Source: Octopus vulgaris (Eukaryota). Taken from it: a stretch of 64,000 bases of DNA. The notes below the pieces were generated by a model that was not told the DNA's origin, searched no databases, and worked only from the letters and a program-made list of their open reading frames with translations. The stretch is taken from contig OX597835.1 of assembly GCA_951406725.2 (NCBI GenBank), positions 3,906,001 to 3,970,000 on the forward strand, in the 5' to 3' direction. This document shows, piece by piece, positions 692-25,244 of the stretch (position 1 is its first letter; the number at the start of each line of letters is the position of its first letter). A program made the translations under genes and the position numbers.

Positions 692-858
692 CTATTCCTT
701 GACTGGAATGCTTTCGTGGGCATACGATAGTTTCCCAGTGGAAAAGTCAGAAACTGTTTGACCTTCTCCCCTTAGGACCCATTTTGTGGTCAGTAACCCT
801 TCAACTCCAACAGGGCCCCTTGCGTGGATACGACTTGTACTGATTCCAACCTCAGCCC
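692..858 (-). CDS. ALDH18A1: P5CS last coding exon with TAG stop
   Basis: [55 protein letters not shown]; ttttcAG acceptor. Confidence 0.95.
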
Positions 859-1782: not shown

Positions 1783-1878
1783 CTAATCCAAACCTGTATC
1801 CATCAGAAAAACGTGTGCTAATATTATGGAAAACACACGCACTGTCCACTGTTTTCAAAAATCTTTCAGCCACAGCAG
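1783..1878 (-). CDS. ALDH18A1: P5CS coding exon 13
   Basis: [32 protein letters not shown]; ccacAG / GTAAGT. Confidence 0.96.
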
Positions 1879-2289
1879 CTGTGGAATAGAGAAATGGAAC
1901 ATTAGAACATGAAAACAATAGCAAAGTTCCATGTAAAAAGCGCTGTCCACTCTGTAAGGTGGTTGGCGTTAGGAAGGGCACCCAACCATAAAAAACCATG
2001 CCAAAACAGACAGTGAAGCCTGGTGCAGTCTTCAATCTAGCCGGCTCCTGACAAACCATCCAACCCATGCCAGCATGAAAAACAGACGTTAAATCATGAT
2101 GATGATAATGATGACATATTAATTATTGATCTTATTAATCACAAGGTCAACTTTGTCTGACCCCCTTCTAAAACAGTAGGAGTGTGGTGGGAAGAAATCT
2201 GGTTGTTGTTTTTAGAAGGTTAAGCAACCATGCAGAGTTTCCCTGACTTATTAGAAGTCATGATGGTGTACACATGTTGATGCAGAGAT

Positions 2290-3236
2290 ATATGCCTTAG
2301 GTCTGCTGCTGGTAACAAAGGGCCTCTCACTCAAAGTGAAAGGTAGACTGTAAGATGCATGTGTGCACACAGCCATGCTACACAGCTGTGAAAATTGGGC
2401 TGTGACTGCTGAGGACATGCATAAGCTTGCAAGAAATGAAGCTATTATGCTCCACTGGATGTGTAATGTCAGTGTGCATACACAACAGAGTGGAAGCACC
2501 CTGAGAGAAAAGTTGGGAATAAGAAGCATCAGATGTGGTGTGTAAGAGAGACGACTGAGCTGGTTTGGTCATGTGTTGTATATGGATGAGGACAGGTGGT
2601 GTGTGGAAAAGTGGAGGAAACCTGTCGAAGTGGTAGACCCAGGAAGACTTGGGATGAGGGGGTGAAGTGTGACCTTCGACTGTTGGGCCTCATGGAAGTA
2701 ATGACAAGTGACTTTGGAGATATGTTGTGCTTGAGAAGACCTGACAAGCCAAGTGAGACTGTAGCCATGGTCTATGCCAGTGTCACATAACCGGCCCATT
2801 TAAGAGTATCCTTCAATCATTGGGCAATAAACTGTGCTTGAGAAGACCTGTTGAGTGATGTGAAATTATTGTTGTGGCCGATGCCAGTACCACCTGACTG
2901 GCACCTGTGCTGGTGGCACGTAAAAAGCAGCATACGATCACGGTCAATGCCAGTGACGCCCGACTAGTCCCATGCCGGTGGCATGTAAAAAGAACCATTT
3001 GGGTGTGGTCGATGCCAGGACCACCTGACTGGCTCCTGTGCCGGTGACCCGTAAAAAGCACCCACTATACTCTCAGAGTGGTTAGCGTTAGGAAGGGCAT
3101 CCAGCTGTAGAAACCTTGCCAGATCAGACTGGAGCCTGGTACAGCCTTCTGGTTTGCCAGTCCTTAGTCAAACCGTCCAACCAATGCCAGCATAGAAAGC
3201 GGACGTTAAACAATGATGTTGATGATGAGGATGATG
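2290..3236 (+). mobile_element. RTE-type LINE 3' fragment (decayed RT C-terminus) followed by family D 3' UTR and (GAT)n tail
   Basis: TAMLHSCENWAV...MLHWMC...LREKLGIRSI, RLSWFGHV, GRPRKTW motifs with stops. Confidence 0.85.
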
Positions 3237-3744
3237 CTTTAGTTCAGTAACATATATTTCTAGGGATTTGGGGAGTTTTGATTTTATTTATTTTAGTTTT
3301 TTGAAGAAACCTAACTTCAAATACCTTTTTACAGATCAATGTTTAAACACTATTTTCTAAGCCTGAGAAAGGTAAGTAGGTGGTGCAATATTGAATTTTG
3401 CACCCCAACAAAATTTTAGGAGGGGCAAGTGCGCCCCATACACCCCCTATTTCCGGCCCCTTGGACAAGGAAGTTCCTTTGTCAAGCTGCGACAAAAACG
3501 GTCGACATTTACAAACATTATTTCTGTAGCCATATAAAAGTAAATTACTATGTCGATTGGAATCACCGTGTCAAGGGGAATAACATCTCAAGGGGAATAA
3601 CCGTGTGAAGGGAAATAATTCCTTACAACTTTCATAAGCATTTCCTATTGGCTTCGTCAACTGAGCAAGTAATTAACGATAATTAACAGTCAGCAGAATC
3701 CACGTGAAAGCTAATTAGAAAGTCAGAGAGTCAATTCCAATTCT

Positions 3745-3956
3745 TATTTCTTTATTTCTTTATTTCCCACAAGGGGCTAAACACAGAGGAGACAAACAAG
3801 GACAGACAAAGGGCTTAAGTCGATTACATCGACTCCAGGACGTAACTGGTACTTAATTTATCGACCCCGAAAGGATGAAAGGCAAAGTGGACCTCAGCGG
3901 AATTTGAACTCAGAACATAATGGCAGACGAAATACCGCTAAGCATTTCGCCCAGTG
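3745..3956 (-). mobile_element. SINE family B, slightly 5'-truncated, 15-bp TSD
   Basis: TSD gtcaattccaattct at 3730-3744 and 3957-3971. Confidence 0.88.
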
Positions 3957-4522
3957 GTCAATTCCAATTCTATCAGTGGTCATTGGGTGGCTTTAGTGAA
4001 GTCCGATTTATTTCAGCCATTCAAGCCAGGTCATCTTCTTCTTTCCAGTCTCAGGAGCCCTAAAAAGAGCCCTTCCTTTTCTGACTAAAACATGAAAAAT
4101 TAAGAAGCTTACTTCCCAACCACATAGTCCTGGGTTCAATTCCACTGAGTGGCACTTTGAGCAAGTTGTCTTCTACTGTAGCCTCAGGCTGAGCAAATCT
4201 TGTGAGTGGATTTGGTTGATGGAAACTGGAAAAAGCCTGTCATGTATGTATATGTGTATGTATGTGTGTCTGTGTTTGTCCCCCCACCACCCACCACCAT
4301 TGCTTGACAACTAATGTTGGAGTGTTTACGTCCCTGTAACTTAGCAGCTCAGCAAAACAGACCAATAGAATAAGTACTAGGCTTACAAAGAATAAGTCCT
4401 GGGGTCGATTTCTTCAACTAAAATCCTTTAAGGTGGTGCTCTATGAGGGCCACAGTCAAATGACTGAAACATGTAAAAGAATAAAAGAAATAGATAAAAT
4501 CAGATGCCAAAGTTCATCTTAC

Positions 4523-4709
4523 CATTCTTTGTGAGGATAGACTCTGTGTGAGCGCTACCGTATTTGTGTATGTGAGAAATAGCATCATCGACATCGTCTA
4601 CAATTTCAACAGCACACTCTAAGCAACTGTATTCCATATTCATCCGAACTGCTGGAGAAGGGCCAAACTTCAGCAGGCTTGTTAAACGAGGACCAGCGTG
4701 AACTTTTAC
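4523..4709 (-). CDS. ALDH18A1: P5CS coding exon 12
   Basis: VKVHAGPRL...EYSCLECAVEIVDDVDDAISHIHKYGSAHTESILTKN; ttacAG / GTAAGA. Confidence 0.96.
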
Positions 4710-4770
4710 CTGTAAACAGAGGTTGTAAAAAGGGTTGCTGACATGATGCAAGCAGGAACACCTAGACATC

Positions 4771-5200
4771 CCAGACTGTCAACACTTACACGTTCCAGAC
4801 CGTCAACACTTACACATTCCAGACCATCAACACTTACACATTCCAGACCGTCAACACTTACATATTCCAGACCGTCAACACTTACATGTTCCAGACCGTC
4901 AACACTTACACATTCCAGACCGTCAACACTTACACATTCCAGACCGTCAACACTTACACATTCCAGACCGTCAATGCTTACACATTCCAGACCGTCAACA
5001 CTTACACATTCCAGACCGTCAACACTTACACATTCCAGACCGTCAACACTTACACATTCCAGACCGTCAACAATTACACATTCCAGACCTTCAACACTTA
5101 CACATTCTAGACCGTCAACACTTACACATTCCAGACCGTCAACAATTACACATTTCAGACCGTCAACACTTACGCATTCCAGACCGTCAACACTTACACA
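4771..5200. repeat. 24-bp minisatellite, ~18 copies, in a P5CS intron
   Basis: Unit ccagaccgtcaacacttacacatt; accounts for the spurious HSRPSTLT ORF. Confidence 0.97.
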
Positions 5201-5261
5201 CTGTCATTAGTACAATTATGTTGTTTTTTTTTTAATTTCTCAAAAATCTGTCAACACTTAC

Positions 5262-5383
5262 ATTTTCCATCTTAAACATTTCAAATATTTTATCAAATAA
5301 ATCAGATCTGAAGAGTTGTCGGTGTATAAGGAGTGTTTCCATAGCGTTACAAGCTGCAGGATAATCACATTTAGAGTCTTTCA
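5262..5383 (-). CDS. ALDH18A1: P5CS coding exon 11 (catalytic Cys motif; not in ORF track)
   Basis: [41 protein letters not shown]; ttccAG / GTAAGT. Confidence 0.95.
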
Positions 5384-6390
5384 CTGGAAAGAAACAAAGA
5401 AAGAAGCAAGTCTCAGTAATGGTAAAAGCTGGAATCTAAGGAAATGGTTGTGATGAGGACAGTAGCAACCTCTTCACTGCCAGGTAAGTGGTTTACTCAT
5501 TGGTATGCATATCCCAGTTTTACAATAGGTAGACCATATATATATATATAAGGCAAATAAGAAAATGGAGAGGATAATCAATTGACAAACATCACCCTAT
5601 AGACATTCATTCATATCTGTTTATTAATTGATTACAATCATATGAATAAGAAATCCAAATAAACAAATGAATAAGAATAAATGAGTGAAAAAAATACGAA
5701 GCTCTTAACAGCTGTTTCTACTATGGCATGATGTGGAAAACTTGGCAGAGTGGTTGGCATTTGGAAGGGCATCCAGCTGTAAAAACCTTACCAAAACTGA
5801 CTTCACCTGTACTTGTGCCATGTAAAAAGCACCAAGTCCACTCTGCAGGGTGGTTGGTGTTAGGAAGGGCATCCAGCTGTAAAAAATCCTGCCAAAAACA
5901 GTCCCAGAAGTCTGGTGCAGGTTTCTGCCTGGTTGGCTCCTGTCAAACTGTCCCACCCATGCCAGCATGGAAGATGGACATTAAACAATGATGAAGATGA
6001 TACATATATGGTAAAATAGGGGTTTAAAATGCACCAAATTTATATATATGTTTTCATATAAAAGTTTTTCTGTAAAACTATAAGTGCATGTTTTCACAAA
6101 GTGAGTTTCACATGGAAAAAGAGAATCACGTTTTACTGAAAAGTTTCCATGTATAAAAAAACAGTTTTACTCAATAAATTTTAATGTTTGTTTTATATTT
6201 ATGTAGTATAAACTGTTTGACTCAGTTCCCCAACTTAAAGTTCTGTGGGCAGATAGGACATGCCCAACTCCTCAGATGCTAAGAGCAGAATCAGCTCCTA
6301 ACATCCAATGAGGTGATGAATGGGTCCCGTGCACCCACAAAATTTCAAGTCACGTGCAACTGAATCAAATTGTTATTAAAAATACATATA

Positions 6391-6800
6391 GGTGTAGGAG
6401 TGGCTGTGTGGTAAGTAGCTTGCTTACCAACCACATGGTTCCGGGTTCAGTCCCACTGTGTGGCACCTTGGGCAAGTGTCTTCTGCTATAGCCTCAGGTT
6501 GACCGAAGCCTTGTGAATGGATTTGGTAGACGAAAACTGAAAGAAGCCTGTCGTATATATGTATATATATTTGTATGTGTGTGTATATGTTTGTGTGTCT
6601 ATGTTTGTCCTCCAACATCGCTCGACAACCGATGCTGATGTGTTTACGTCCTCGTAACTTAGCGGTTCGGCAAAAGAGACCGATAGAATAAGTACTAGGC
6701 TTACAAAGAATAAGTCCTGGGGTCGATTTGCTCGACTAAAGGTGGTGCTCCAGCATGGCCGCAGTCAAATGACTGAAACAAGTAAAAGAGTAAAGAGTAA
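6391..6800 (+). mobile_element. Full-length tRNA-derived SINE, family A (internal TA/TG tract, agtaaa tail)
   Basis: A box tggctgtgtgg, B box ggttcagtccc; many near-identical copies in the window. Confidence 0.9.
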
Positions 6801-7161
6801 CTCTAACTTTCTTTCATTTGTTCCCTCACTTGTGTGTGTGTGTGTGTGTGTGCGTGCGTGTGTGCGTGTGTATATGCATGCATGTGTGTGTACACACATG
6901 CACACACACAGACACACACAGATACATAGCTGTGCACCACACGAACCATGCTGAGCTACTCAACATGGTAAAAACTTGATGAAATTAAAAGCCACGAAAT
7001 TCATTATTTTTAATTAAATTGTTAATTAATACAAAGTGTTAGCACTTGTAAACTCCATTGGAGTTTTAAGATTTTCTCATCAGCAAAGAAGAACATTCAT
7101 TCAATCCATTCAAAGCAGCATCAAATTCAAAAACCATAATCAAAGAGGACATTAGTCTCAC

Positions 7162-7357
7162 CAATATCAATAACTTTTTCGGGATCAGCATCTTTATCAA
7201 TATACACGTGACATACACCTTCACTGTGGCCCAGCACTGGGATTCCTTTGCTCATATCTTGAATCTTGGAGACAAGTTCATTAGATCCTCTTGGAATAAC
7301 AAGATCGATATATTCATCAAGTGTCATCAAATCTTCAATGTCTTCTCGTCGGCTCAC
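7162..7357 (-). CDS. ALDH18A1: P5CS coding exon 10
   Basis: [25 protein letters not shown]...[16 protein letters not shown]...; cttcAG / GTGAGA. Confidence 0.96.
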
Positions 7358-7374
7358 CTGAAGAGATAGATATT

Positions 7375-7531
7375 TATTTCTTTACTACCCACAAGGGGCT
7401 AAACACAGAGGGGACAAACAAGGACAGACAAACGGATTAAGTCGATTATATCGACCCCAGTGCGTAACTGGTAATTAATTTATCGACCCCGAAAGGATGA
7501 AAGGCAAAGTTGACCTTGGCGGAATTTGAAA
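7375..7531 (-). mobile_element. 5'-truncated SINE family B inserted in the acceptor region of P5CS exon 10
   Basis: TSD tgaagagatagatatt at 7359-7374 and 7532-7547. Confidence 0.9.
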
Positions 7532-7540
7532 TGAAGAGAT

Positions 7541-7680
7541 AGATATTAAGAAGGATTAGATCACTCACTCCCTGATTCATAAGAAGGATTCAATCTGTCT
7601 TCCCCTGATACATTAAAAAGGATTAGACTAGTCATCACCTGATACATTAAGAAGGATTAGATCAGTCGCTGCCTGATATA
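7541..7680. repeat. Degenerate ~33-35-bp tandem repeat, ~4 copies
   Basis: Recurring cctgatacattaagaaggattaga. Confidence 0.75.
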
Positions 7681-7896
7681 TCATCACATCTCATAATTTG
7701 GTCAACTGTTGATTCAGTGGAAATATTCGTCACTGATCTTCTTTTCAATCATTACAGCACAAAGTAATTAACACAAAACAATTAGTACAATGTAACACTG
7801 TGTGTGTGTGTATATATATATATAAGTGGAGGCGCAATGGCCCAGTGGTTAGGGCACACACACAATATTATACTATATATATATATATATATATAT

Positions 7897-8233
7897 TTCT
7901 TTCGTGACCGACCAGGCTATCAGATGTTGTTACACATCGCTGGTCACAATGCACTTCGCATTGTTTTAGCCTTCAAATGATGCCACCCTGCTGGCGAAGT
8001 GAGCAGGCCAAAAGAAGAAAGAGTAAGAGAAAGTTGTAGTGAAAGAGTACAGCAGGGATCGCCACCACCCCTTGCTGGAGCCTCGTGGAGCTTAAGGTGT
8101 TTTCGCTCAATAAACACTCAATAAACACTCATTTTTCGCTCAATAAACACTCACAACGCCCGGTCTGGGAATTGAAACCACGATCCCACGACCGTGAGTC
8201 CGCTGCCCTAACCACTGGGCCATTGCGCCTCCA
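7897..8233 (-). mobile_element. SINE family C copy
   Basis: Reverse complement of gtggaggcgcaatggcccagtggttagggcagcggactc. Confidence 0.8.
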
Positions 8234-8399
8234 CATATAGGGTAACATTTAGCAATATATTAAGGTTTAAAATATATACAATAATTGAGGACATGTGCAT
8301 AAACATTGAAGTACATATATGCAAACACACACACACACATGCAGATAACCATATATCCCACCCCCCGAGAAATATGCAAAGAAATGCTTCAATACTTAC

Positions 8400-8537
8400 A
8401 AGGGACACTGTTTCCTTTGGTACGTAAGGCTCCAGTGCATCTTGCACCAATTCTTGTAGAAGTTTGTTACTATTTGAAGCTTCTTTTCCACCTTTTAACA
8501 ACAAACCATTGGCGCTGGCAATGGCAAGGGCCGCAAC
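8400..8537 (-). CDS. ALDH18A1: P5CS coding exon 9
   Basis: [46 protein letters not shown]; tttcAG / GTAAGT. Confidence 0.96.
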
Positions 8538-8687
8538 CTGAAAGATATTTTCAAAATAGAATGACATAAATAAAACAGTAAAACAGGGTTGTGTAAAGGC
8601 GCTTGGGCCTAGTGGTTAGGGTGTTGTGCTCGTAATCATAAGATTGTGGGTTCAATTCCAGGAATGGGTGGCACAGGAGTGAATATA

Positions 8688-9590
8688 GGCGCAGGAGCAG
8701 CTGTGTGGTAAGTAGCTTGCTTACCAACCACATGGTTCCGGGTTCATTCCCACAGCGTGGCACCTTGGGCAAGTGTCTTCTACTATAGCCTCGGGCCAAC
8801 CAAAGCCTTGTAAGTGGATTTGGTAGATGGAAACTGAAAGAAGCCCGTCATAAGAGTAAATAAGAGAGACAGAGACAGGCAGAAACAAGGAAAATGCCCC
8901 TTGTATTTGAATACTATACAAATATTCTTTTAAAAAACTTTTCTTTTAATTTTTCTAAATTTAATTATTTAATTGTTACAGTTGAAAAAGTCTCAATGAC
9001 TGAAACCGGTACTAAAATGTTTTTTATAAAATTATTTTAGCATTTTCTATCTTGACTTTTTTCCATATATATATATATCATCATCATCATCATCATCATC
9101 ATTTAGCGTCCGTGATGATGATGATGATGATGATATATATATATATATGGAAATATATATATATATATATAATACAAAATGGGACAAGAACGCAAAACAT
9201 CCGGACAACTAGGTGATACAAAAAGGGGACAACAAAACATCCAGATAGACGATACAAAGAAAACAAGGACGGGTCATTCGAAGTTTTCTATCTTCAGTCA
9301 AGAACCAGATTATCCTTGCAATTTCGGCTGATTATTCTTGAGATTGCTCCAATCTGGCCAGCCCTGTGTATGTGTGTGTATATGTTTGTGTGTCTGTGTT
9401 TGTCTCCCCAATATCACTTGACAACTGATGGTGGTGTGTTTACGTCCCCGTAACTTAGCAGTTTAGCAAAAGAGACCGACAGAATAAGTACTAGGCTTAC
9501 AAAGAATAAGTCCTGGGGGTCGATTTGCTTGACAAAAGGCAATGCTCCAGCATGGCCACAGTCAAATGACTGAAACGAGTAAAGGAGAAA
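8688..9590 (+). mobile_element. SINE family A head and body separated by ~500 bp of nested repeat fragments
   Basis: Head 8688-8850, body/tail 9365-9590. Confidence 0.75.
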
Positions 9591-9674
9591 AGCGAAAAAA
9601 CACAGACACAGAAACACACACACACATACACACACACACATACATACATATATATATATATATATACATATATA

Positions 9675-9837
9675 CGACGGGCTTCTTTCAGTTTCCGTCT
9701 ACCAAATCCACTCACAAGGCTTTGGTCAGCCCGAGGCTATAGTAGAAGACACTTGCCCAAGGTGCCACTCAGTGGGACTGAACCCGGAACCATGTGATTG
9801 GTAAGCAAGCTACTTACCACACAGCCACTCCTGCGCC
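9675..9837 (-). mobile_element. SINE family A head
   Basis: Reverse complement of ggcgcaggagtggctgtgtgg...gaagcccgtcg. Confidence 0.88.
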
Positions 9838-9927
9838 TATATTTAACTCTTTTAAGCAAATCCCAATGAATGGACAACATTACTTAAATAGGGGCTTTCT
9901 CTTGAAAGTAAGGAAAGGGTTGTTTAC

Positions 9928-10145
9928 CTGTGGCAAAGCATCAGGGCGGGATTCAAAGATCACAAGCAGCACTCCAACAGGTACCGTGATTTGCTTCAAG
10001 TCAAGTCCATCAGCAATGTTTGAGTGTCGAATGACACGACCGACAATATCTTCAGAAGTGGCAGCAATCTGTCGAAGACCTCCAGCTAAAACATTCAGCT
10101 TCTCTTTAGTGAGTTTCAGCCGGGCAATCATGGGAGCAGACAATC
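9928..10145 (-). CDS. ALDH18A1: P5CS coding exon 8
   Basis: [12 protein letters not shown]...GLRQIAA...[21 protein letters not shown]; cattAG / GTAAAC. Confidence 0.95.
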
Positions 10146-10469
10146 CTAATGAGGAGAAGTCACAATGATTAGAAAATAGCTGTCTTGTTTGTTTTAAATA
10201 TACATTTTTAAGAAAGAAAAAAAAGACATTTGATAGCAAGATAAAATAACATCTAATAACTTCATAATGATTTGCATCTCCCACATATTAACCCTCTCGT
10301 TACCGTATTTCTGTTGAGATGCTTTGTGTTTCTTTCAATTAATTTTAAATATAACAAAGAATTTAGTAAAATAACTTCGTTATCATTCAGCTAGTGTTAG
10401 GAACATAAATTGTGACTAAGGTTTGGTGAAAGATTTTAATTCAAAACTTATGAAAACAAGACATTTGTA

Positions 10470-10622
10470 CTTGGTGATCCCAGCTTCTAGCGACATTTTC
10501 GGCCTTATCTGCTTAAGAACTTCTCCATTGGTGAGCCTCGCTGTCCATGGAATCTGCAAAAGTCTTCTCCAACACCAAAGCTCGAAAGCATTAATTCTCT
10601 TCTGGTCAGCTTTCTTAAAAAG
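10470..10622 (-). mobile_element. RTE/BovB-like LINE fragment
   Basis: KRINAFELWCWRRLLQIPWTARLTN, the typical RTE-BovB C-terminal signature. Confidence 0.85.
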
Positions 10623-10956
10623 CACTGGTGATGGTGCCATGTAAAAATCACACAGTACACTCTGTGAAGTGGTGGGCATTAGGAAGGACAACCAGCTGTA
10701 TGAACCAAGCCAAAACAGACAATGGGACCTGGTGTGGATCCGGAGGTTGTGAGCTCCTGTCAAACCATCCAGTCCATGCCAGTGTGGAAAACAAATGTCA
10801 AATGATGAGGATAAGGATGAGGATGATGATGATAACAGATATTTCAAAAGATGCTGTGTTCAGACAGCTAACAACTGATGTGGGTAGTTTTACATAAATT
10901 TTATAGAATTTTATATAACATCACCGAGATATCAACAAGAAATAAAGGTTACCAAC

Positions 10957-11100
10957 CAGTCATTTCTGCTTCGAGAACGTCTTTTCTGTTGGCCTGGAGG
11001 ATTTCGTCTTTGCGGTCAATCAAGGAATTGGCAAGTCTGTAGATGATGTCAGCTCTTTCTTTTGGTGTGATCGTTTGCAACAAACGACTGCCTTCGCGTG
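10957..11100 (-). CDS. ALDH18A1: P5CS coding exon 7 (not in ORF track)
   Basis: AREGSRLLQTITPKERADIIYRLANSLIDRKDEILQANRKDVLEAEMT; ttacAG / GTTGGT, phase 1-1. Confidence 0.92.
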
Positions 11101-11387
11101 CTGTAAACAATAATTATGGTCTTGTAAAACGTTATCAATATCTATATGACTTTCTACACGAACACACACACACACACACACACGCATACACACATATATG
11201 CATGTGTGTGTGTGTGAATATGTAGTTTTGAGATATTTCTTTTTTTATGGCTTGCATTAATGAACAACAGCACTGGCCCATAACTGGTTCTCTGCGTTTC
11301 TATGGAAACAAGGCCGAGTGATGCTTGTGCACTCAGCCTCTCACCTCTATCTCATTGGCTGAGATAGATCATGTGACAGTCTCTCTC

Positions 11388-11550
11388 TTTTACTCTCTCT
11401 TTTACTTGTTTCAGTCATTTGACTGTGGCCATGCTGGAGCACCGCCTTTAGTCAAGCAAATCGACCCCAGGACTTATTCTTTGTAAGCCTAGTACTTATT
11501 CTATCAGTCTCTTTTGCTGAACCACTAAGTTACGGGGACGTAAACACACA
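11388..11550 (-). mobile_element. SINE family A 3' half
   Basis: cttgtttcagtcatttgactgtggccatgctggagcaccgcc. Confidence 0.85.
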
Positions 11551-11885
11551 CATATATATATATATAAATATATGAAACCCTGAAATTCAAGAGCTCTATC
11601 CCTATACCATAAGTCTGAGCCTACAAAGGAGCCTCTACATGGCCATTTAACTTGCTAAAAATAGTAACTAAATTTCCTTCAAATCAATTACTTCAATCTT
11701 AAAAAAAGGCAAAGACACAGTTTTTAAAGCAGAGATTTGAGAGGGATCTAAAAAGGAAGGGAGGGTGAAATAGATAATGTCGTTCTGGATACCTCACAAA
11801 AGACAGGATCCCTTTGATCTAAGAGCTGCTCTATCAGAACTGACCAAGGGTTCAACAACAACAACAACAACAACAAAATTCTTAC

Positions 11886-12048
11886 CTTGCATGGCTTGCA
11901 GTTCTACAGGTGTTCCAGTCACCTGAGCTGTTGTGAAAAATGTTCCAACTTGTTTGCCTTTGATAATGTTTAACAAAGCTTTCTCTTCCGTACCATTGCA
12001 GATCACTACAGACACACCATTCTGCACAGCCCATGTAGCGGCCTTCAC
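11886..12048 (-). CDS. ALDH18A1: P5CS coding exon 6
   Basis: VKAATWAVQNGVSVVICNG...KQVGTFF...ELQAMQ; ccAG / GTAAGA, ends phase 1. Confidence 0.95.
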
Positions 12049-12376
12049 CTGGTAATTAAAATAGACAATTACTTTGTTTTCAATTAATTTAAAGACAATT
12101 GATACCTCTCACACACAGTGTCTTCATTATTTTGACAGAAAAAAATTTAATTTAATTTCCCACTGCCTAAAACAAGCTTCACCTTCATTCAGGTGTGAAA
12201 ATAGATTTCCATCCATAGCATAGACACCTGTTAATCTAAAGATGCAATTTTTAATGAAATAACAATGAAAATAATTTCTAAGGATCATTCACGCAATGGC
12301 CAAAATTTCAGAGTGGAATATTGTCTGTTAAATTAACAGCATCCTATTTCAATAAAAGAGAGTAAATTCTTCATAC

Positions 12377-12595
12377 CTTTGATTCCATGCCTCCAAGACC
12401 AACTCTAGATTTCCCTTCAAATACCACAGAAGTATTGTCAGTTGTCGGAGAAAACGTGTGGACGAGACGAGAACCTTCAGTACCCGGTGGACTGGTGTAT
12501 AATCCATTGACATCCGACATTAATATAAGAATATCAGAGTCCATTTCCACAGCTAAACGGGCAGCCAAACTGTCATTGTCTTTCAGACTGATAAC
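12377..12595 (-). CDS. ALDH18A1: P5CS coding exon 5
   Basis: [33 protein letters not shown]...[12 protein letters not shown]; ttctAG / GTATGA. Confidence 0.96.
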
Positions 12596-12812
12596 CTAGA
12601 AAATGGTAAAGAATTTTAGGAAGAATTCAAATCTGTTTTTCTATATTCAGTGAAGCTTGGAAAATCAAGAAACAATGTTTTTCTCTTTTAAAGATAAATA
12701 AAATTTATTTGGTCAAAAAATTCTTCTCAATCTGTGACAGATTTGGAAAAAGGTGTTGGTACTGCTGTTTCTTTTGGGAATGAGCAAAATTGACACACAC
12801 ACATACACACAA

Positions 12813-12845
<33 letters not shown>

Positions 12846-13034
12846 TTTCCTTGTAAACTGTTTTTAACATGTTCTTATTATTATCAAAGAATGTATATAT
12901 GTATTGTAATATTTTGTGACAACCAGTACCTAACACAACAAAGCTTTTACATTTTACTTTTGACAATCTTTTTCTAAAAAAGTGAAACCGGTCAAGTGAA
13001 TAAACATCTTTTAAAATTGCATTTTCAAACCTTC

Positions 13035-13086
<52 letters not shown>

Positions 13087-13747
13087 GTACATATATGGAG
13101 ACAGAGAGACAGAGAGAAATACGTTATACATATATATTGAACTCAGTACAAGTAATAGAGTATATTTATTTGCATAAAGTTGATGATTCCCTCTCCAACA
13201 ACTCAGAACACTTCTATTATTGATCTATTCCATTGTAGCTGACATGAAGATAACAATTAAATGTATAACTAAATGCTTAATTAACTTTAAATTAAATTTA
13301 AAATTTCCAGAAAGGAGTTTTTATTAAAATTCTACCAACATATTTTGGAAACATTTAATTATATATTTTGATTTTACCTATTTTTTAGATTTTTATTTTT
13401 ACTTACTTTTCAACATTCATATAATTATTTTCAACACATCCATTCTTTCGTAGTTAATTAGTTAATTAGTGATAAAATAAGATTGGAACTTGTTAGTCAG
13501 GCAGACAAAGGCAAAGACAATCATGTCCTAATACAACGGTGACTGTAAGTTTTGATCTCATGGTTTTGTGGTTCACTAAATTGAAAAGAGAGAGCACTCC
13601 ATCAGTTACGATGATGAGGGTCCCAGCTGATACGATCAGTGGAACAGCTTGCATGTGAAATTAGTATGCAAGTGGCTGAGCAATCCACAGGCACGTGTTC
13701 CCCTAACATACTTTGATTATTGTACTTCGATTCAGGAAAAATTTAAA

Positions 13748-13903
13748 GGCACAGGAGTGGCTGTGTAGTAAGTAGCTTGCTTACCAACCACATGGTTCCA
13801 GGTTCAGTTCCACTGCATGACACCTTGGGCAAGTGTCTTCTACTACAGCCTCAGGCCGACCAAAGCCTTGTCAGTGGATTTGGGAGACGGAAACTGAAAG
13901 AAA
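13748..13903 (+). mobile_element. SINE family A head
   Basis: ggcacaggagtggctgtgtagtaag...ggaaactgaaagaa. Confidence 0.85.
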
Positions 13904-15179
13904 CTATAATCCATTTCATTTGATTACAGATTTTAGCTTCTTTAATTAATTAAGTCACTTTTTTTACACGATTCCTTTATAGTTTAGATATCTTTTTCTT
14001 TTTCTGAAAAGAAGGGACAACAGAACTTATAAATGTTTTTTTGGTCCTCTACGGATAAATTAGCAAGATTAATGGGGTTATTGTTCAGTTTGAATTCATC
14101 CAGGTTAGTAGTTGAAGGGAAAACAGGGGTGAGGCAGCTGTTAAGGAAGACTGAATAATTAGGGGTACATGTAATACTGGTTGAAGCTGTTTAGTAGATT
14201 TTTCTACAAGGGTGAGATACAAAAGGGCTGTAGGGTGGTGAAAAGATGGGTACATTGAAGGAAATTTAGATGAATGGGGGTAAATAGTCAATGAATGAAG
14301 ATGAAAAGAAGCAATTGTGGATGTTGAAGAAGAGAGAGAATGAAAGAGACAACTCAAGTGCTGGTTCAAATTCGTTAAAACCTGATGAATCACTTTTAAT
14401 TAATCACTTTTAATTATGGTTTATAATCAAAATCACAAGCTATTTCATTTGAGATTGAGCCACAGAACTTGTTAAAAGTCTTGTACAGTACTGAGACAAA
14501 ATTATAGAATTTGCTGGAATATAACAGCCAGAACTAACGCTTCTGCTAATTTTTTTCCAGACCACAAAGTTCCATTGGGTTCAGCAAACAACTACAACTT
14601 CTAAAGCAGTAAAAAGATGAGAAATAGATTTCCCCATGGATAGAATATTGGATGAATAAAGGTAGCTTTCCCATTATTTTAATTCAGTACCCTTCAAATC
14701 AAAGGACTCTGGTACTGCCATCTATATTACAAGTCACTACTCCAGGTAGGTGGAAGCACCATAGTTAATTAACTGGTGGTTTTTATCTATTAAGACCACC
14801 AGCCCTGACAACGTCCTCTCCATTATATTGAAACTACATACCTCAGGACTAAACCCTGTCCTCACTCGAATCACTCTGTCTCTCTCTCTCTCTCTCTCGG
14901 GATGCTATGGTAAACATGCCAAAGAGTATCCCATTTGCAAGAAAGGCAACCTGGTAACCTCTTTCAAAGTTTAGCTGAAACCCCTGACTCAATCAACCAT
15001 CTAACGCCATCCTATTGCACTAATGGAAACAACCATTAACAACAGAAATAGCAGCCAGATCTCCCTTAACTCACACCCTACAGTCTTAAATAAATGTATG
15101 TCTGCCTGATGAGAGATGATCAACAGCAGTGAAGATTTTCAACATTAATGTTTGATTACCAGAAGATGAAGAATGGAGG

Positions 15180-15217
<38 letters not shown>

Positions 15218-17269
15218 TCAAATAAGCAGAAAATGGGAAAAAACACTCTTGATCAACAAACAAATTGACCAACATCAGTTAATTATTTTTTAATGCAAAA
15301 TATAACATAACATTTCTTACAGCCGTTTCGGCTGCCAATGTCAGTCGGTGCTTTCAAAGAAGGCCCAATATATATGAATCATACCATTTTTCAGTATTCA
15401 ACTTCAAGCTTCACACTGAAAAATGCTATGATTCTAATATATTGAGCCTTCTGGCCTCAACTCAAGGCTGTTCTTTCCTCTTCCCTTCTTTTATTTTATG
15501 TATGTGTACTCACTCTGATGAAGCTCTATGTACTAGATTGAATATGCTATAAAGTTGACACATATTATTTTCGGAATTTTCTTTGAAAGCACCGACTGAC
15601 ATTGGCAGCCGAAATGGCCGTAAGAAATGTTAGGTTATGCTTTGCATTGAAAAATAATTAACCAATGTTGGTCAATTTGTTTAAATTTGATTCCTGAAAA
15701 ACTTTTGTTTATTCTGTTATTACCTGTACCCTATGAGCATAGTGTGCTTGCATGCTGATGCCCAGGGTTAACATAGGCAAATGATACAGGTAGGACGAAC
15801 AGATATTCTTATCCCTTAAATGGTTATTCCTGCTGCTAACTCTGCTTACCTACACACACACACACACACATATTTGGCAACCTCACTGCAGTTGGTGCCA
15901 CATAAAAAGCACCCAGAACACTCTGTAAAGTGGTTGGCATTAGGAAGGACATCCAGCTGTAGAAACCCTGGCAAATCAGACATAGAACCTGGTGAAGCCC
16001 TCTGGCTCATCTGTTCTTGTCAAACTGGCCAAACCATGTCCAGCATGGAAAAAGGGACATTAAATGACGACGACGATGATGATGATGATAATGATAATGA
16101 TGATGGAGCTGATCTCAATGCTATCCAACTTTCATGTACAGGAAACAAATGGTTCGGAAAACTATGCAGTAGTTTAGTAGTAGCAGTATTAGTCAAAGTA
16201 GTAGTAATAATAGGATATTAAAGATAGGACCCTTTCCCCAACACCCCTTTTTTTAAAAATATTTTTATAAAAAATTTTCATGTATCATTCTATTAAAATA
16301 ATTTCCATCTCATTTTGTTGTTATCTGAAACAAAGGTTGTGTTTTTTTTCTTTGATATCTCAAGGGGTAACTAAAACCATAACCAGGACTTAATTCACCA
16401 AATCTTTGTTTCTAGAACAGCAAATAGAAAAGAAAGGAGAAGGGTTCGATTTCAAAGCAATTTTGCAATTTTCTTTTTTGTAGTTTTCTGGATTTCCAAG
16501 ACCAAAGATATTCCATAAAACCATGTATCTCTTCCCTAAATGGTAAGAACAATGGTATATTATATTGTTTATATTATATTGCTATATTGTCTATTTTAGC
16601 AAAGGATTTATTAAATCCCCACCATTGCATAACTGGTACTTTGTTTGCTAATCCTTAGGATTATTGATTTATTATCCAAGAACTAAAGCCTTTCTATACA
16701 AATCCACTCATTCACTGCATTAATATCAATTATGCTGGATGTAATATAAGGCTTTGAGAAAGTCCCCTGTGAAGGAATAGCCTCAAATCTATGGAAATAT
16801 TTATTTTTCACTTATTCAATGTGACAGTGTCTAGACTTAACTTCACACATAGACATAATATCGATGATGGTAGATTATTAGCATATAATATAAAGTTTTG
16901 AGAAAGTCTTCTGTGAAGGACTAGCTTCCTATCCATGAAAATATTTATTTCGCTTTTACTAAATGTGACAGTATCCAGACTTAATTTTAGACCCTACAGA
17001 TTGTTTGTGTGAACAGCAAAGTGGACAGACCTCACTCGATATGCTTTTAAGGTGCAGGTTCCAGCTATGAACTATTTAATTTCATTTGTAGGGTTAACGC
17101 CTTTAAAAAACAGCATTTAAAGACTCAACTTTCAAATTTATTACATTTTATTAAAATAAATGGACAGTGGTTTTGTCTCTAAAAACAAATTGCTCCATCA
17201 AAAACCATTCCACATAAATTAAAAAGATGGAAAGTAATATAATTACCAGAAAAATGGTCTTTTAATAAC

Positions 17270-17715
17270 CCTTTCTACTACAGGCTGAAGGCCTGAAATT
17301 TTAGGGGAGGGGACAAGTCAATTCCATCAACCCCCAGCATTTGACTGGTACTTATTTCATTGACCCTCAAATGGATGAACGCCAAAGTCAACCTCAGTAG
17401 AATTTGAAATCAGAATGTAAAGAGGGGCGAAATGCTGATAAGCATTCTACCTGGAATGGTAACAACTCTGCCAACTCACCTCCTCATCATTTTTTAATAA
17501 TCCTTTCTCCTAAAGGCACAAAGCCTGAAAGTTTGAAGGAGAGGGGAGTCAATTACATTGACCTCAGTGCATAACCGGTACTTAATTAATCAACCCCCGA
17601 AAGGATGAAAGGCAAAGTCAACCTTGGCGGAATTTGAACCCATAACCTAAGGACAGATGAAATGCCACTAAGCTTTGCACCCAGCGTGCCAACGATTCTG
17701 CCAGCTCACCACCTT
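17270..17715 (-). mobile_element. Two tandem older SINE family B-related copies
   Basis: Two decayed cccgaaaggatgaaaggcaaagtcaacct...gccagctcacc blocks. Confidence 0.75.
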
Positions 17716-18102
17716 ATTGTCTTTCAATAATAAAAGCACATTCATTCTGATAATCTAATGCCAAATTCCGATCCTAATCTTTTTAATTTCAAAATCTTTA
17801 TTCACCAGAGCTAGAGTCATTCTATCAGTTGGTCCTTAAACTTGTGACCAGCAACTGGAACCAAAATATCATCTACAGACACAAGATTAGTTCCAAACTA
17901 ATATCTCAGACATTGTGAAATTCTTCATAAAACCCAAATATTTTGGGGGAATAGTTTTCATTGCAATTTTCTTGCCATATATAAAAAGAAATTTAATTAT
18001 CCTCATATTTAAGTTCTGTTTTCATTATAAATAGCAATTTTTTACTAAAATTGCGACCCTTTCTTCTTATTATTTGCCATTTCTATAAACACAATTCCTC
18101 AC

Positions 18103-18126
18103 CTGCTCTGCTGCATCCATATATAC
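18103..18126 (-). CDS. ALDH18A1: Candidate alternative 24-nt microexon of P5CS (VYMDAAEQ)
   Basis: cactaat branch point...ccattttttAG|GTATATATGGATGCAGCAGAGCAG|GTGAGG; phase 0-0, no stop, inside a phase-0 intron. Confidence 0.6.
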
Positions 18127-18379
18127 CTAAAAAATGGGACGTGCGGATTAGTGACAGAATTGAAACTGTAAAACAAAATACATGCGAAAACATGCCAAAG
18201 TGAAGATTAAGGAATGTGTGACTGTTGTTTCTAGGATATCATTTGGAATTGGTTAGTTTAGAGACAGAATCTGTAAACTGGAATGACAAAAATTCTTCTG
18301 GAAAATATTTTGAAGTTTCATTTGATTTCAAGAGAAATAAAGAATATTGGTCAATATAAATAATTATCAATTACATAAT

Positions 18380-18815
18380 TACAGAATCAGAATCGAAATC
18401 GATCAATGGAAATTGCAGCTGAGTTACCAGTGCCGGTGGCATGTAAGAGAACCATCTGAATGTGGCCATTGCCAGCGCCGCCTCGACTGGCCTCGTGCCG
18501 GTGGCACATAAAAAGCACCATCCGTTCATGGCCATTGCCAGCCTCGCCTGGCCCCCGTGCCAGTGGCACATAAAAAGCACCATCCGATCGTGGCCGTTTG
18601 CCAGACTCGTCTGGCACCTGTGCCGGTGGCACGTAAAAAGCACCCACTACACTCATGGAGTGGTTGGCGTTAGGAAGGGCATCCAGCCGTAGAAACATTG
18701 CCAGATCAAACTGGGCCTGGTGCAGCCTTCTGGCTTCCCAGACCCCAGTTGAACCGTCCAACCCATGCTAGCATGGAAAGTGGACGCTAAACGATGATGA
18801 GGACGATGATGATGA
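18380..18815 (+). mobile_element. Retroposon 3' part (family D) with internal gtgccggtggcacgtaaaaagcacc repeats and (GAT)n tail
   Basis: Same tail at 1930-2113, 2850-3235, 5750-6000, 10630-10833, 15890-16103, 20530-20688 and, on minus, 54600-55120, 59340-59465. Confidence 0.8.
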
Positions 18816-19398
18816 TAATTGATCGTTAATTAGTCTTCTTCTTGTGCTGCTGCTGCTGCTACTGTTGTGTAATTTGAAACCGTGAAAGTCTTGCAACACT
18901 TGTGATGCTTGTCTTTGTTTTTAATGCAAAAAAGCGTGATGGCTGTAGTAGAACAGTGTGTAGGCTGATGTAATGCAGTGTACTATAATGTAATAGTATA
19001 TGTGTGAGTGTACGAATATGCATGTGGTTTGATGTAGAATATATTTGTAAACATGTTATTTCTCGTAGACAAAAGAGCTCTCATGTTTGGCTTGTTACTA
19101 TGGAAAAAGACGCCTATAAATCTGTGGCTTATGATTGGCTAAAACTACTCCAAATTTGTAAACTTTAAAAGCTATTAACTCATTATTTATTGATTTATTG
19201 ATTTTATAGCAAGTTGATGCAGGTTGTTTATCCTGTCTCCCTCTGACCTTTAGTTCATGCAAATGAAAAAATTGTATTATTTATGGGATGACCCACTACA
19301 TATATATATATATATATATACATACACACACATACACACATGCACACACACACACACACATATATATATACACACACACTTTATGATTGTGTGAATGA

Positions 19399-19454
<56 letters not shown>

Positions 19455-19509
19455 CCAACATGACTCAGCTGTATGGTTGTATCTAGTCGAAAAGTAGTAT
19501 GAGAGTGTG

Positions 19510-19542
<33 letters not shown>

Positions 19543-19903
19543 ACTGTATTGATTTAATATTGAGAAAAAGCATTAGTGAGACACGAGTCTCATCCTAAAA
19601 CTCATCACAGAAAAGGTTGCGACTTAGAAATCCCAGTTACACTCCAGAGGTTACAATTACAACCACAATGTCCTTGTTACTTGTAATAAATCACTGATAC
19701 GTAACAAATTTCGGTCACATCTTAAAAACAATAATTGGATGTGAACACAGTTAACTTAAAAGTATAGTGACTTATTATGAAACACAGTTACTGCCCAGTC
19801 ACCATAGTAACAGAAACTACATTAATTAATAATCAGGTTCCTCACATTAAAACAACAAAACAATAAGAAAAATAACCAGGTAACAAAACATTGTAAAACT
19901 TAC

Positions 19904-20056
19904 CCCTGAGAGGTCCTTGTCTTGCTCTGGTGGTGGGGCAACAGCATCGTTTGCATTTAATATTGGGATGATGTTTAATCGAATCAACTCTGATAGGGTG
20001 CTATGCAAATTCTTACGGCTTTCCTCATTGCTGAAGTCAGGTTTGGTCACTAACAC
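19904..20056 (-). CDS. ALDH18A1: P5CS coding exon 4
   Basis: VLVTKPDFSNEESRKNLHSTLSELIRLNIIPILNANDAVAPPPEQDKDLSG; ttctAG / GTAAGT, phase 0. Confidence 0.95.
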
Positions 20057-22120
20057 CTAGAAAAAAATTGAAATTTAGATCGAATCATGGTCTTATAAAT
20101 TCCATTGTATTGCTTGGACATTATGGAAGGTTTCTTCTTTCAGTGATGGTGATTTAAGAGAAGATACACTGATGCAGTTCCTGGCTGGATTTGAAACCTG
20201 CACTGCAACCCAATAAAATATCAATTTTAGATTTCATGTTGTTGCAGAGCTACAGTCAGTTCAGCTCAAGTAATACTTCCGCTATGGAGGCATTAGACCC
20301 AAATCCATGTTATTATAGTCCAGTCTAATCTGAAAGTAACTCCTGTTTAATATTATTAAGGTGGAGGCTCATGGCCTAGTGGTTAGAGCAGCAGACTCGC
20401 AGTTGAGGGATCGCGGGTTCGAATCTCAGACCAGGCGATGTGTGTGTTTATGAGCGAAACACCTAAGCTCCACATGGCTCCAGCAAAAGGTAATGGTGAA
20501 CTTCTGCTGACTCTTTCCTCCTGCACACAGGAAGCATCCAGCACACTCTGTTAAGTGGTTGGTGTTAGGAAGGGCATCCAGCCATAGAAACCATGCCTCA
20601 ACAGACAGCTGGAATCTAGTTGGCTCCATGACAAACTATCCAACCCATGCCAGCATGGAAAGCAGACATTAAATGATGATGATGATGATTTTCTGATAAG
20701 CAAAAGTCAGTTGTTTCAGCTTTCAATGTGAGACAACCAGCAAAATAAAATAAAAAATGCCTTGCTTAGAAGAAAATAGGTAAGGGTTAGAGACAGGAAG
20801 AGCATGCAGCCATTGGAAATCTTTGGCAACAAGCTTTATGTAATGTATGCTGATATGAAAAACAGAAATAAAAACAGAAATAAAAATAGCATAAAATGAA
20901 CTTCATTACATTTGTTATTGCCAAGTTTTAAAAAAAAGGTATTGTGAACCCAAGGTTAGGATAGACGTCACTTGCTCAAGGTGCTGTGAAGTGGAATTGA
21001 ACCAGGAATGCCATGGTTGAGAAATAAACTTCTTAACCACAAAGCCATGCCTGTTAGGTTTATATGTCCAGGAATTTTGTTCTTTGAACTAAATTTTCTC
21101 AATTGATCAGCATTCTTCATCATTGAGAATGGAACCTCTTACTGTTGTCCAAAGATTGACAGCAAACATGTAATTCCTCAGATCATTAAAATGATTTGAG
21201 GAAATCGGTAACGATGATTGATAAACTCATAACCATTAAACACACACACACACACACACAATTATGGAAGAAGATTTTTTTCTCTCTTCCCTTTTTTGAT
21301 TGAATATTATTAAATATTTTCCTTTTCTCCAAAACTTTGATAAACACATTATCATTATTATTATTAAAAGCTTATCATAAAACTAACCTCTTGCATTGTG
21401 AACTTTAAACTGAAAGTCTGTGTCACTGTTAATAACAATAAGGATTTTGGTCTGATAAAAGAAGAATTTTAAATATAAAAATATTATCTGTTTTAGCTCT
21501 TTCAGTTTATAGTTCTCCCTGAATTAATTATATTAACACTGACCCAATTATATTTATATGATGACCTATTTTTCTTGGTAGATGGCATCTGAGTAATTTA
21601 TTCTCTAAATAATTCTATTTTTCAAAGACAACCAGTGTATGGTAGTGATTCTTCTATCACTACTGAAGCAAGTGGAGTGAAACCTGTGTTTGGCTAATGA
21701 GAACATAATAAGATTGGAACATGTCTGTAGTTACTGAAATAATTATAATAATATTATTCACTGGTTAATACCACTTTTGTTTTTCTTCACTTCATAATTA
21801 TTCTTAGTTAAATTTTTAAAACAGTAATTTAATTATTAATTTAAAACTTTAACGAATCCATGCTGTGCCCTCACTCTCCTAATCTTCTAAACAAGTTTCC
21901 AGTGTGGTTTTTCTGTGCATATCAACTGAGGTTACATCACCACCTTGCACGTGCTAAACGGGAAGCCTCTACCAGGTTGATAAACCTATTAGAAATAGCA
22001 GCCAAATCATTCATGAATCATAATCTACTACCTTAACAAACAAGTGTACATCAGGTAGTGTACTCCTAGGTACACTACATTTCAGATCATAGATCTGCCT
22101 GGTCAAGGTAGACTTAGGAC

Positions 22121-22187
<67 letters not shown>

Positions 22188-22272
22188 AGAGAGAGAGAGA
22201 GAGTTGACGTTTCTCAGACATTTACTCATTAATATTGTTGTGTTAATTAAATATGTTAGTGTGATGACTTAC

Positions 22273-22377
22273 CTGAGCAGTCCTTACACCATACTGAATA
22301 AACATCTGTTCATAAAGAGACATTAAACCACTCTGACCAGTTGCAGCACAGGCCCGGGGTTCAATTAAGGATTTGCT
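22273..22377 (-). CDS. ALDH18A1: P5CS coding exon 3
   Basis: [35 protein letters not shown]; tttcAG / GTAAGT. Confidence 0.95.
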
Positions 22378-22830
22378 CTGAAAGCAAGAATAGAAGGCAA
22401 AAAAAAAAATAAGGTATTTAAGTAAGTCATGTGCGTGCGTGTCCCCCCCCATCACCATTTGACAACCGGTACTGTTGTGTTTACATCACCATAACTTGGC
22501 AGTTTGGCAAAAGAGACCAATAGAATAAGTACTATGGTTCAAAAATAAGTTCTGGCATCAAATTGTTTGACTAAAATCTGTCATGGCGGTGCTCTGGCAT
22601 GGCCACAGTCAAATGATTGGAACAAGTAATAGAATAAAAGAATAAAATTAAATATTCTAAATACTGATTTAATAATAAAAAAATTATATTTTATTACATC
22701 TCTTCTAGATTCTTGATAATTTTCAAACTTAATTGATAATTACATTGGTAATGTACTTCATTAGGGATGTGTTCCTGAAAAGGTTAAATTCCTTTGAGAA
22801 TGTTTTGGGACGTCAGAAGAAATCACTTAC

Positions 22831-22974
22831 CTTTGATTCATAATTGGCAAGCGTCATGGTCTGTCGCATACTCATTGACATGAGAATTTCTTGCTGTAAC
22901 TTTTGTTTACCATATGCAACGGCACCACTTGTTACCATTAAGACTTCTTTACCTTGGTTCTGTAACTCCGAAAC
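22831..22974 (-). CDS. ALDH18A1: P5CS coding exon 2
   Basis: [48 protein letters not shown]; ttgcAG / GTAAGT. Confidence 0.95.
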
Positions 22975-23107
22975 CTGCAAAAGTCAGAAGCCGTTTTCAA
23001 GATCTGACTATAGACTTTTGCAACATTAAGTTAATACACAACACACACACACACAGAGTACAGCCTCACACACACACACACAGAGTACAGCCTCACACAA
23101 ATACACA

Positions 23108-23140
<33 letters not shown>

Positions 23141-23334
23141 GATTGGTTGAGTGTAATGACCAGTATTTTTCATTTGAAATTTCTTCTTTTACTGGTCTTG
23201 TTCTTTGGACTATGTCCATGCTAGAACATTAGTCAAGAGTTTACTCAGGATCAACAATCCCACAGGCATATGGCACAGTGGTTAAGAGCATGGACTACTA
23301 ACCCCAAGATTCCAAGTTCGATTCCAAGCAGTGA

Positions 23335-23365
<31 letters not shown>

Positions 23366-23690
23366 CATAGCCATGTGTTGAGAGGGATTCTTTGGGGTTT
23401 GAATAATTCACCTCTGGAAACATGGGTGGTTTTTTCAACATCCTTAAGCAACCCTTATTCAGGGACCGTTTGACCGGGATGGGCTACTTAACCTGAAGAA
23501 AATTCTAACTGGGCCCCACCTGCAAAGTCATGCACTGTTTATCTTGATATGAGATCACCATGTCGCGCACATTTGGTTGTGATGCATGTGCCTGGTGTAC
23601 CCTTATCAGACAGGTAGTCATGATGGGTATATTGGGCTTTGTATATTTTACCCCAGTGTCACTTTGATGGCGTGCACTGCTCTCTCACTC

Positions 23691-23746
<56 letters not shown>

Positions 23747-24458
23747 TGATGATGATAACATCGAAAAATACCTTAGGAATGAGAACCCAGGTTCGAAATT
23801 TCCCCAAGACACCTGAAGAAGACCAAAGCAAGAGAAGCCCTTTGATAAGCCACCCCACACCCCCCTAGATGGTTTAAATCAGTCTTGGATAAAAATTTAT
23901 TTCTTAAACATTGTTGGAAAAGTGAAATGTATGTTGTTACTAAAACTGACTTAGATTATTGTGACTGTCATTTGTGGGTAGATATTGAAGGCAAAGTCCA
24001 CCAAGGTTTAAGGAAGCACTGCAAAGTGGCAAACAACAGCTTCAATGTGGCGCTAACAATAGTTTTACAGGTTTCTTGTTGCTAGTTTAATCCTAAGTCA
24101 GTCGTTATTAAGCAGACATAGATTCACAAACATTTCTCATATAAGCATTCCGTCATGTTTGATCAGTTATCGCATACTTTAGATTCATTATCCAACATAC
24201 TGTTTTTAAAGAAAATAAGATGTGATTCGAAGTAGCTTTTGCTACTGTTTCTAGCACATCAAGTGACCACTGAGAGGTTCCTTCACAAGCTCATCTCAGA
24301 GTTAGTAATTTGTGTTCAGTTCCTGCCACAAGAAAATCTACCTTCAACCTCCAACGGAAAAATGTCCGTCTAGAGAGAGATTCATCTCCCTCTCTCTCTC
24401 TCCCCCTCTCTACAAAGCTGAGTCGCTTTTAAATGAATTTCTGTGCTTTACAGAGGAA

Positions 24459-24890
24459 CTAGCAGTATAGCCCGGCGTTGCCCGGGTATGTAAGAGCCCC
24501 TAGTAGGCAACGACTAATCCCAATCTAGTCCTTTCCCTCTAGGGAACGAAGGCGCATGTGTAGGTTGCAATGTCTTCTCTTCACTCAAATACTTCTGTGT
24601 ATACGATGTTCCTAGCTGTCCCTTTGGGCGATAAAAAGGTCGAGTTGTGTCCCCTAGACAGAAAATGTGTTGAATATAAAAAGCTTAGATTCTCGACCCC
24701 ATGTCGAATTTATCAATTTTTTTCAGAACTGGGGAAACTTTTTAAAATTTTAGCTGCGTTAGTTTTGAATTATGACATTGGGCTATGTGTGTGTCAAGTT
24801 TCATCAGAATCGGTTGAAAGCCGTGGTCAGGGTGAGGGTACAACCTGACAGCCACACAGACAGACAAACTGCCGTTTATATATATAGAGA
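24459..24890 (-). mobile_element. Non-autonomous Helitron
   Basis: On minus: 5' TC, subterminal hairpin cccgggcaacgccgggc, 3' CTAG, inserted between A and T. Confidence 0.85.
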
Positions 24891-24935
24891 TAACTGTTCA
24901 AGAGCACCTTGTCACCTTCAATTTAATCAACTCAC

Positions 24936-25244
24936 CTGTTCAACAATAGAGGCAAGACGACCGAGAGCAATGCCACACTCATCATCTCTTGTGATCACTG
25001 CACTTCCTAGTTTAACCACAACACGTTTGGCATGGAGAAGATCCTGGCGGTAGAGGAAGCTACCAGCACACCGTGCTCCCGAGAGTGTCAAGTTCCGTTT
25101 GGTTATATGTTGGATGTAACTTCGACAAACAGGGGACACATACTGTCGAGTGGAATTCTCTGGATAAACTTGTCGAGCAGTTGAGAGTCGTCGGACAAAA
25201 GCCTGCTGCAAGCAGACAGCTGAAGAAAGTTTCCTTGTGTACAT
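24936..25244 (-). CDS. ALDH18A1: P5CS coding exon 1 (Arg/Ser-rich mitochondrial-type leader + start of kinase domain)
   Basis: MYTRKLSS...[33 protein letters not shown]; acceptor tctttcAG at 25253-25254, 8 nt above the ATG; donor CAG|GTGAG. Confidence 0.93.

Follow-up and report, generated by a model that had tools for sequence, protein, structure and literature searches.

A 24-nt cassette microexon in the lid loop of octopus P5CS, at a junction where animal P5CS isoforms recurrently differ

The Octopus vulgaris gene for P5CS, an enzyme that makes proline and ornithine, raises the question of whether a very short exon, proposed from the DNA in an initial annotation, is truly spliced into the glutamate-kinase domain, and whether its eight residues could release feedback inhibition as a two-residue insert does in mammals. 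The gene was analysed in a window of 64,000 nt (contig OX597835.1) and its features are collected in Table 1. Joining the 14 constant coding exons gave a skip-form CDS whose translation is exactly that of the O. vulgaris protein CAI9738772.1 (P0123), and the flanking coding exons confirmed the proposed site between DLSG and VISLKDNDS. The host intron was also correctly described in the initial annotation as phase 0, 7.3 kb in length and the longest of the coding region (the runner-up among 13 coding introns is 2644 nt), as was the upstream donor, GTAAGTTT, which has no GT at +7 and its next in-frame GT at +28. The alternative-donor arrangement of the mammalian switch is therefore absent in octopus, where there is no GT at +7 and the microexon is a separate exon of its own, 1.8 kb into the intron.

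Table 1. Features of the P5CS locus (window coordinates).
Feature	Position	Strand	Details
P5CS (ALDH18A1 orthologue) coding region	692..25244	minus	14 constant exons + microexon
Upstream coding exon	19904..20056	minus	aa 187-237, ends ...DLSG, donor GTAAGTTT
Host intron	12596..19903	minus	7308 nt, phase 0
Two GCATG motifs	18181..18195	minus	-69 and -59 from exon, 10 nt apart; possible silencer
Branch-point-like CACTAAT	18147..18153	minus	CTAAT at -25; putative function
Short pyrimidine tract (ccattttttAG) and weak acceptor AG	18127..18138	minus	use seen in joint 18126/19904
Cassette microexon	18103..18126	minus	24 nt, phase 0/0, VYMDAAEQ = residues 238-245 of 794-aa isoform
Microexon donor GTGAGG (CAG/GTGAGG)	18097..18102	minus	use seen in joint 12595/18103
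Downstream coding exon	12377..12595	minus	aa 238-310 of skip form, starts VISLKDNDS

The proposed branch point, acceptor tract, eight-codon stop-free exon and donor were all found in place. A small splice-site matrix, built from the 13 splice sites of the gene itself, ranked the microexon third among 227 frame-keeping AG..GT candidates of the host intron with an acceptor score of 2.9 (9.2–15.2 for the training sites), and an equally good candidate occurred in 73 of 100 Markov-simulated introns, so that the splice signals alone were not above chance. The reality of the exon is established by outside evidence, namely spliced contigs and annotated proteins carrying the insert. A second minus-strand AG..GT candidate in the host intron (window 17509-17480; 30 nt, frame-keeping) outscores the real microexon; it borders on a repeat-rich stretch, and its joint was absent among the spliced joints listed. 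A P5CS intron also holds, at window 5203-4709 on the minus strand, a tandem repeat of about 24 nt that gives a 165-codon open frame of ECVSVDGL-like units.

Contigs from four of 24 listed sequencing runs were compared (X1, X5, X14 and X21). The exons were covered in X1 and X5, and the lack of cover in X14 and X21 speaks neither for nor against inclusion; that these runs are RNA is a guess, in favour of which the spliced joints speak. Runs X1 and X5, from two different studies, each contained the joints 19904>18126 and 18103>12595 with GT-AG ends, showing an exon within the 3–27 nt range of cassette microexons whose own AG and GT are used in spliced RNA. Inclusion contigs had a depth of 252.8 (X1) and 337.9 (X5) versus about 2–10 for the listed intron contigs, and in one X5 contig 23 further letters stood between the upstream and downstream exons, a length compatible with the 24-nt exon when shared end bases are counted. 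The 24-nt exon encoding VYMDAAEQ is real and is a cassette microexon. The inclusion joints predicted in the initial annotation were thus recovered, whereas the direct skip joint 19904>12595 was absent among the 15 joints listed (173 further joints exist), the runs being kept as contigs, which drop rare forms. Alternative skipping was found in protein pairs with and without the insert, and in O. vulgaris itself it is taken from annotation.

Protein comparisons, as proposed at the outset to check conservation, showed that the exon has counterparts in other coleoids. The identical VYMDAAEQ is present in O. sinensis (RefSeq XP_029649427.1), VYMNAAEQ is the sole difference between O. bimaculoides isoforms X1 and X2, and both O. 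vulgaris protein models and the Argonauta model are of the skip form; because the O. sinensis and O. bimaculoides models include the insert, the exon is already in automated annotation. Counterparts of 7–8 residues occur in two decapodiform relatives: AYRTIGEQ is all that separates P0131 (5 contigs) from P0129 (88 contigs) in the cuttlefish cluster, and P0004 and P0138, which the tree places with full support as the sister group of that cluster, carry VFRNSGQ at the junction. Coleoid inserts share position, length and final Q, and octopus and cuttlefish have three of eight insert residues identical versus 65 of 68 in the flanks. Judged from these alignments the insert sequence is changing fast, and the octopus exon may be either independent or descended from an old, fast-changing exon.

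Upstream of the exon, the two GCATG motifs, which we take to be Rbfox-type cores, possibly form a silencer; the whole 7.3-kb intron holds seven GCATG, and the P value of about 0.004 for two within 100 nt was calculated post hoc. The accessible text of a study of eMIC/SRRM4-dependent neural microexons describes exons of <28 nt that keep the frame and have a weak acceptor, a strong CUAAY branch point, UGC near the 3' splice site, a long AG exclusion zone and a UCUC-rich tract (PMC8797185). The octopus exon is alike in size, frame, strong CTAAT branch point (-25) and weak acceptor, but differs in lacking UGC throughout the 150 nt before it. Its pyrimidine tract is short and T-rich, with no long run of UCUC, and its nearest upstream AG is at -41 (no control set). 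A reading of the exon as an eMIC target lost support on the missing TGC in these 150 nt, and no P5CS entry was present in one supplement file of the eMIC study.

To place the octopus exon among animals, 325 proteins were fetched, of which 192 gave loop matches with the common animal form; insect, rotifer and nematode loops of different build fell outside these matches. Inserts at the junction were found in 36 of the 192 and were lacking in 156, and the 26 distinct inserts ranged from 1 to 33 residues and shared no motif. Of 29 animal cluster groups, 15 contained isoform pairs with and without an insert at the DLxG/VIS junction, and these 15 range from cnidarians to hemichordates (octopus, cuttlefish, limpet, scallop, abalone, acorn worm, crinoids, mite, water flea, two barnacle groups, mayfly, two octocorals and one cnidarian-clade group). 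Two crinoid clusters were merged, reducing 30 look-ups to 29 groups, and seven of the 29 had been chosen for having an insert, the event being present in 10 of the remaining 22. The hotspot count disregarded indels N-terminal of residue 70 and those of the C-terminal tail (784-786). A uniform model over 13 junctions gave P of about 4e-5, a value that serves as a guide only because the lineages are related. The optional VN of fish P5CS falls at the junction that holds the octopus exon, and the human VN insert presumably lies at this DLQG/VIS junction too. The correspondence with the vertebrate junction claimed in the initial annotation therefore stands on fish sequences, as does its claim that octopus arrived there by a route other than donor sliding.

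The ends of the inserts suggest several splicing routes. By first and last residue, 10 of the 26 can be explained by extension of neither the donor nor the acceptor; provided that the phase-0 intron is conserved, these would be cassette exons. Others are compatible with donor extension (VN, VQ, VR..., VG...) or a NAGNAG acceptor (Q). These routes are apparently as read from the protein ends, the octopus exon alone having been seen in DNA. In a metagenome scan for the cnidarian locus the junction turned up in no genomic sequence, so that cassette status outside octopus is read from protein ends only; the scan yielded two transcript-like contigs that span the junction, most of its 80 loci matching the reductase half only. 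One contig (L002) is 65% identical overall to the cnidarian-clade protein P0119 and keeps five of seven insert residues, the same proportion kept between the two octocorals. For the P0119 cluster of the cnidarian clade and P0231, the junction holds +0, +7 or +14 residues, as two 21-nt microexons in tandem might produce. Because optional inserts occur in 15 of 29 groups, apparently by several routes, the junction is a recurrent splicing hotspot and no one-off. The independent octopus solution proposed in the initial annotation is accordingly upheld as regards a cassette exon in place of donor sliding, and given up as a lone case, since optional inserts are found across Metazoa.

A second isoform hotspot near residue 151 had indels in 10 of the 29 groups. 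It maps to window 22831/22377, a phase-0 junction after K151 in a disordered loop beside the filament hook, and its groups include oyster, mussel, several gastropods, amphioxus and mayfly, the mayfly group being the only one with events at both hotspots; the octopus models showed no insert after K151. Two other records drew attention. The Lingula isoforms P0005 and P0140 are equal in length and differ by 23 substitutions, all within residues 159-192, a stretch about the size of an exon, so that mutually exclusive exons seem to be at work, and the 1604-aa Macrostomum record P0001 holds two tandem P5CS copies, either a real duplication or a fused model.

Alignments to the solved structures 8zpj and 7f5t placed the octopus insert in the lid loop, between the equivalents of E. 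coli glutamate 5-kinase D137 and D148 and inside Drosophila region II (residues 211-232). In E. coli the loop E135-N149 closes over proline and feedback-resistance mutations cluster there, according to the available portion of the study (10.1101/2024.09.19.614007). The accessible parts of the Drosophila reports describe region II as disordered and invisible in the cryo-EM maps, modelled in a closed state with glutamate and an open state with G5P, touching this intermediate and proposed to regulate catalysis, with filament contacts made outside it by the hook and the GPR loop. Compared proteins of fly, beetle and spider have a longer lid loop, which is disordered as well and so evidently tolerates length. 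Reviews citing Hu et al. 1999, also available in part, state that ornithine inhibition of mammalian P5CS, which is non-competitive, is abolished in P5CS.long by its two-residue insert. Further partly available sources, not assigned to single claims, were PMC8963878, PMC11061531, PMC8584052, PMC7560826, PMC6689680, PMC9025460 and PMC6395431.

By analogy with these systems, we lean slightly towards the microexon retuning P5CS feedback inhibition, with the longer loop weakening inhibition by ornithine or proline. The optional exon adds eight residues to the loop over the glutamate pocket, and these would hinder the inhibited state of the loop and give a feedback-resistant long form, less inhibited by ornithine or proline as with the mammalian insert; inclusion would be regulated between tissues, and loop length would count for more than loop sequence. 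Evidence for this reading comes from the splicing of the exon, the skip isoforms, the lid-loop position, the decapodiform counterparts of 7–8 residues, the recurrence of optional inserts across groups and the residues kept among cnidarian-clade inserts. Against it weighs the second disordered loop, an equally strong hotspot, as tolerance alone predicts; so do the fast change of the insert sequence, the length tolerated by the loop, the lack of a skip joint among those listed and the 156 of 192 loop matches that carry no insert. The partly accessible literature yielded no enzyme assay on any invertebrate P5CS isoform, and reports ornithine inhibition for mammals only.

Tolerated splicing variation, in which inserts survive only because the intron interrupts a disordered loop, both isoforms behaving alike, would account for both hotspots lying in loops disordered in the fly structure, for inserts of widely varying length with no common motif and for the weak splice signals of the microexon, and one review, as far as its accessible text goes, mentions no overt effect of long versus short P5CS on cell growth. 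We nevertheless consider it unlikely, because an exon of 7–8 residues has been kept in both octopods and decapodiforms, the form assembled from two RNA runs is the inclusion form and no trace product, the cnidarian-clade inserts are conserved in sequence, and in mammals two residues at this site suffice to switch inhibition according to the available part of a review. There is a similarly small chance that the exon is functional with another target, be it catalytic rate, glutamyl-phosphate channelling, filament assembly or a partner or modification site. The proposed role of region II as a catalytic regulator in contact with G5P fits such a target, as does an alternative exon of GFPT1 that alters activity as well as feedback (PMC10514471, accessible part), and mammalian ornithine inhibition, being non-competitive, need not be an ancient property of the loop; yet the filament contacts lie outside region II, and the only measured effects found in the partly available sources for altering this loop concern feedback. 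Very improbable is a constitutive exon whose skip models are annotation misses, or recursive splicing of the long intron at the AG/GT with which the exon starts. In its favour, the joints listed were inclusion joints only, the single O. sinensis model examined includes the exon and the exon begins GTATAT immediately after AG. Against it, models with and without the exon exist for O. bimaculoides, both forms occur among cuttlefish-cluster contigs, all 24 nt are retained in mature contigs, and the cuttlefish exon, which starts with Ala, cannot begin with GT.

The feedback reading can be extended beyond octopus, and here our confidence falls somewhat below even. Animals from cnidarians to vertebrates might share one trick, in which splicing alters the length of the lid at an ancient phase-0 junction and switches feedback off, length rather than sequence being the signal; jointly with this, and with the same reserve, the trick might have been rebuilt many times with different parts. 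Cephalopods, cnidarians, barnacles and limpets would use cassette microexons, vertebrates, water fleas and scallops an extended donor, and crinoids NAGNAG acceptors. If true, this would be a clear example of splicing control having evolved again and again at a single allosteric site, with the mammalian ornithine switch as one case of a pan-metazoan rule. The recurrence makes the allosteric question directly testable, as the 26 natural inserts at one junction are ready reagents for relating loop length to inhibition and bear on human ALDH18A1 enzymology. Proline is described as a sparker fuel in cephalopods in the accessible literature, and isoform choice could thus set proline supply.

The open literature, for which listings were partial and subscription journals lay outside, yielded no description of this junction carrying an insert in invertebrate P5CS, and a search for 'microexon' with 'ALDH18A1' gave 0 matches. 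A preprint on octopus tissue splicing (10.64898/2026.09.05.749416) does not name P5CS in the available main text, and its supplements may list the exon; a paper on P5CS evolution presents the long/short switch for mammals only in its accessible part. The exon is known to annotation pipelines and falls in a known regulatory loop, and it is the recurrence across animals that looks unreported.

Among known systems, mammalian P5CS.long/P5CS.short is the closest, likewise having an optional in-frame insert in the glutamate-kinase domain, with the fish VN at the octopus junction; in mammals the use of the two isoforms is tissue-specific, gut having the short one. The mammalian system differs in using donor sliding and two residues where octopus uses a separate cassette exon and eight. 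The octopus insert also lies in the loop homologous to E135-N149 of E. coli glutamate 5-kinase, where changes release proline feedback, but the bacterial loop is altered by point mutation and held by a PUA domain that is absent from P5CS, whereas in octopus splicing alters its length. The muscle exon 9 of GFPT1, in the accessible text a mammal-specific 54-nt exon that is a small cassette exon in a rate-limiting enzyme and raises feedback inhibition (PMC10514471), shares the idea of a cassette exon altering the feedback of a metabolic enzyme, an effect that in octopus is suggested by analogy; GFPT1 is an unrelated enzyme, and its exon raises inhibition rather than removing it.
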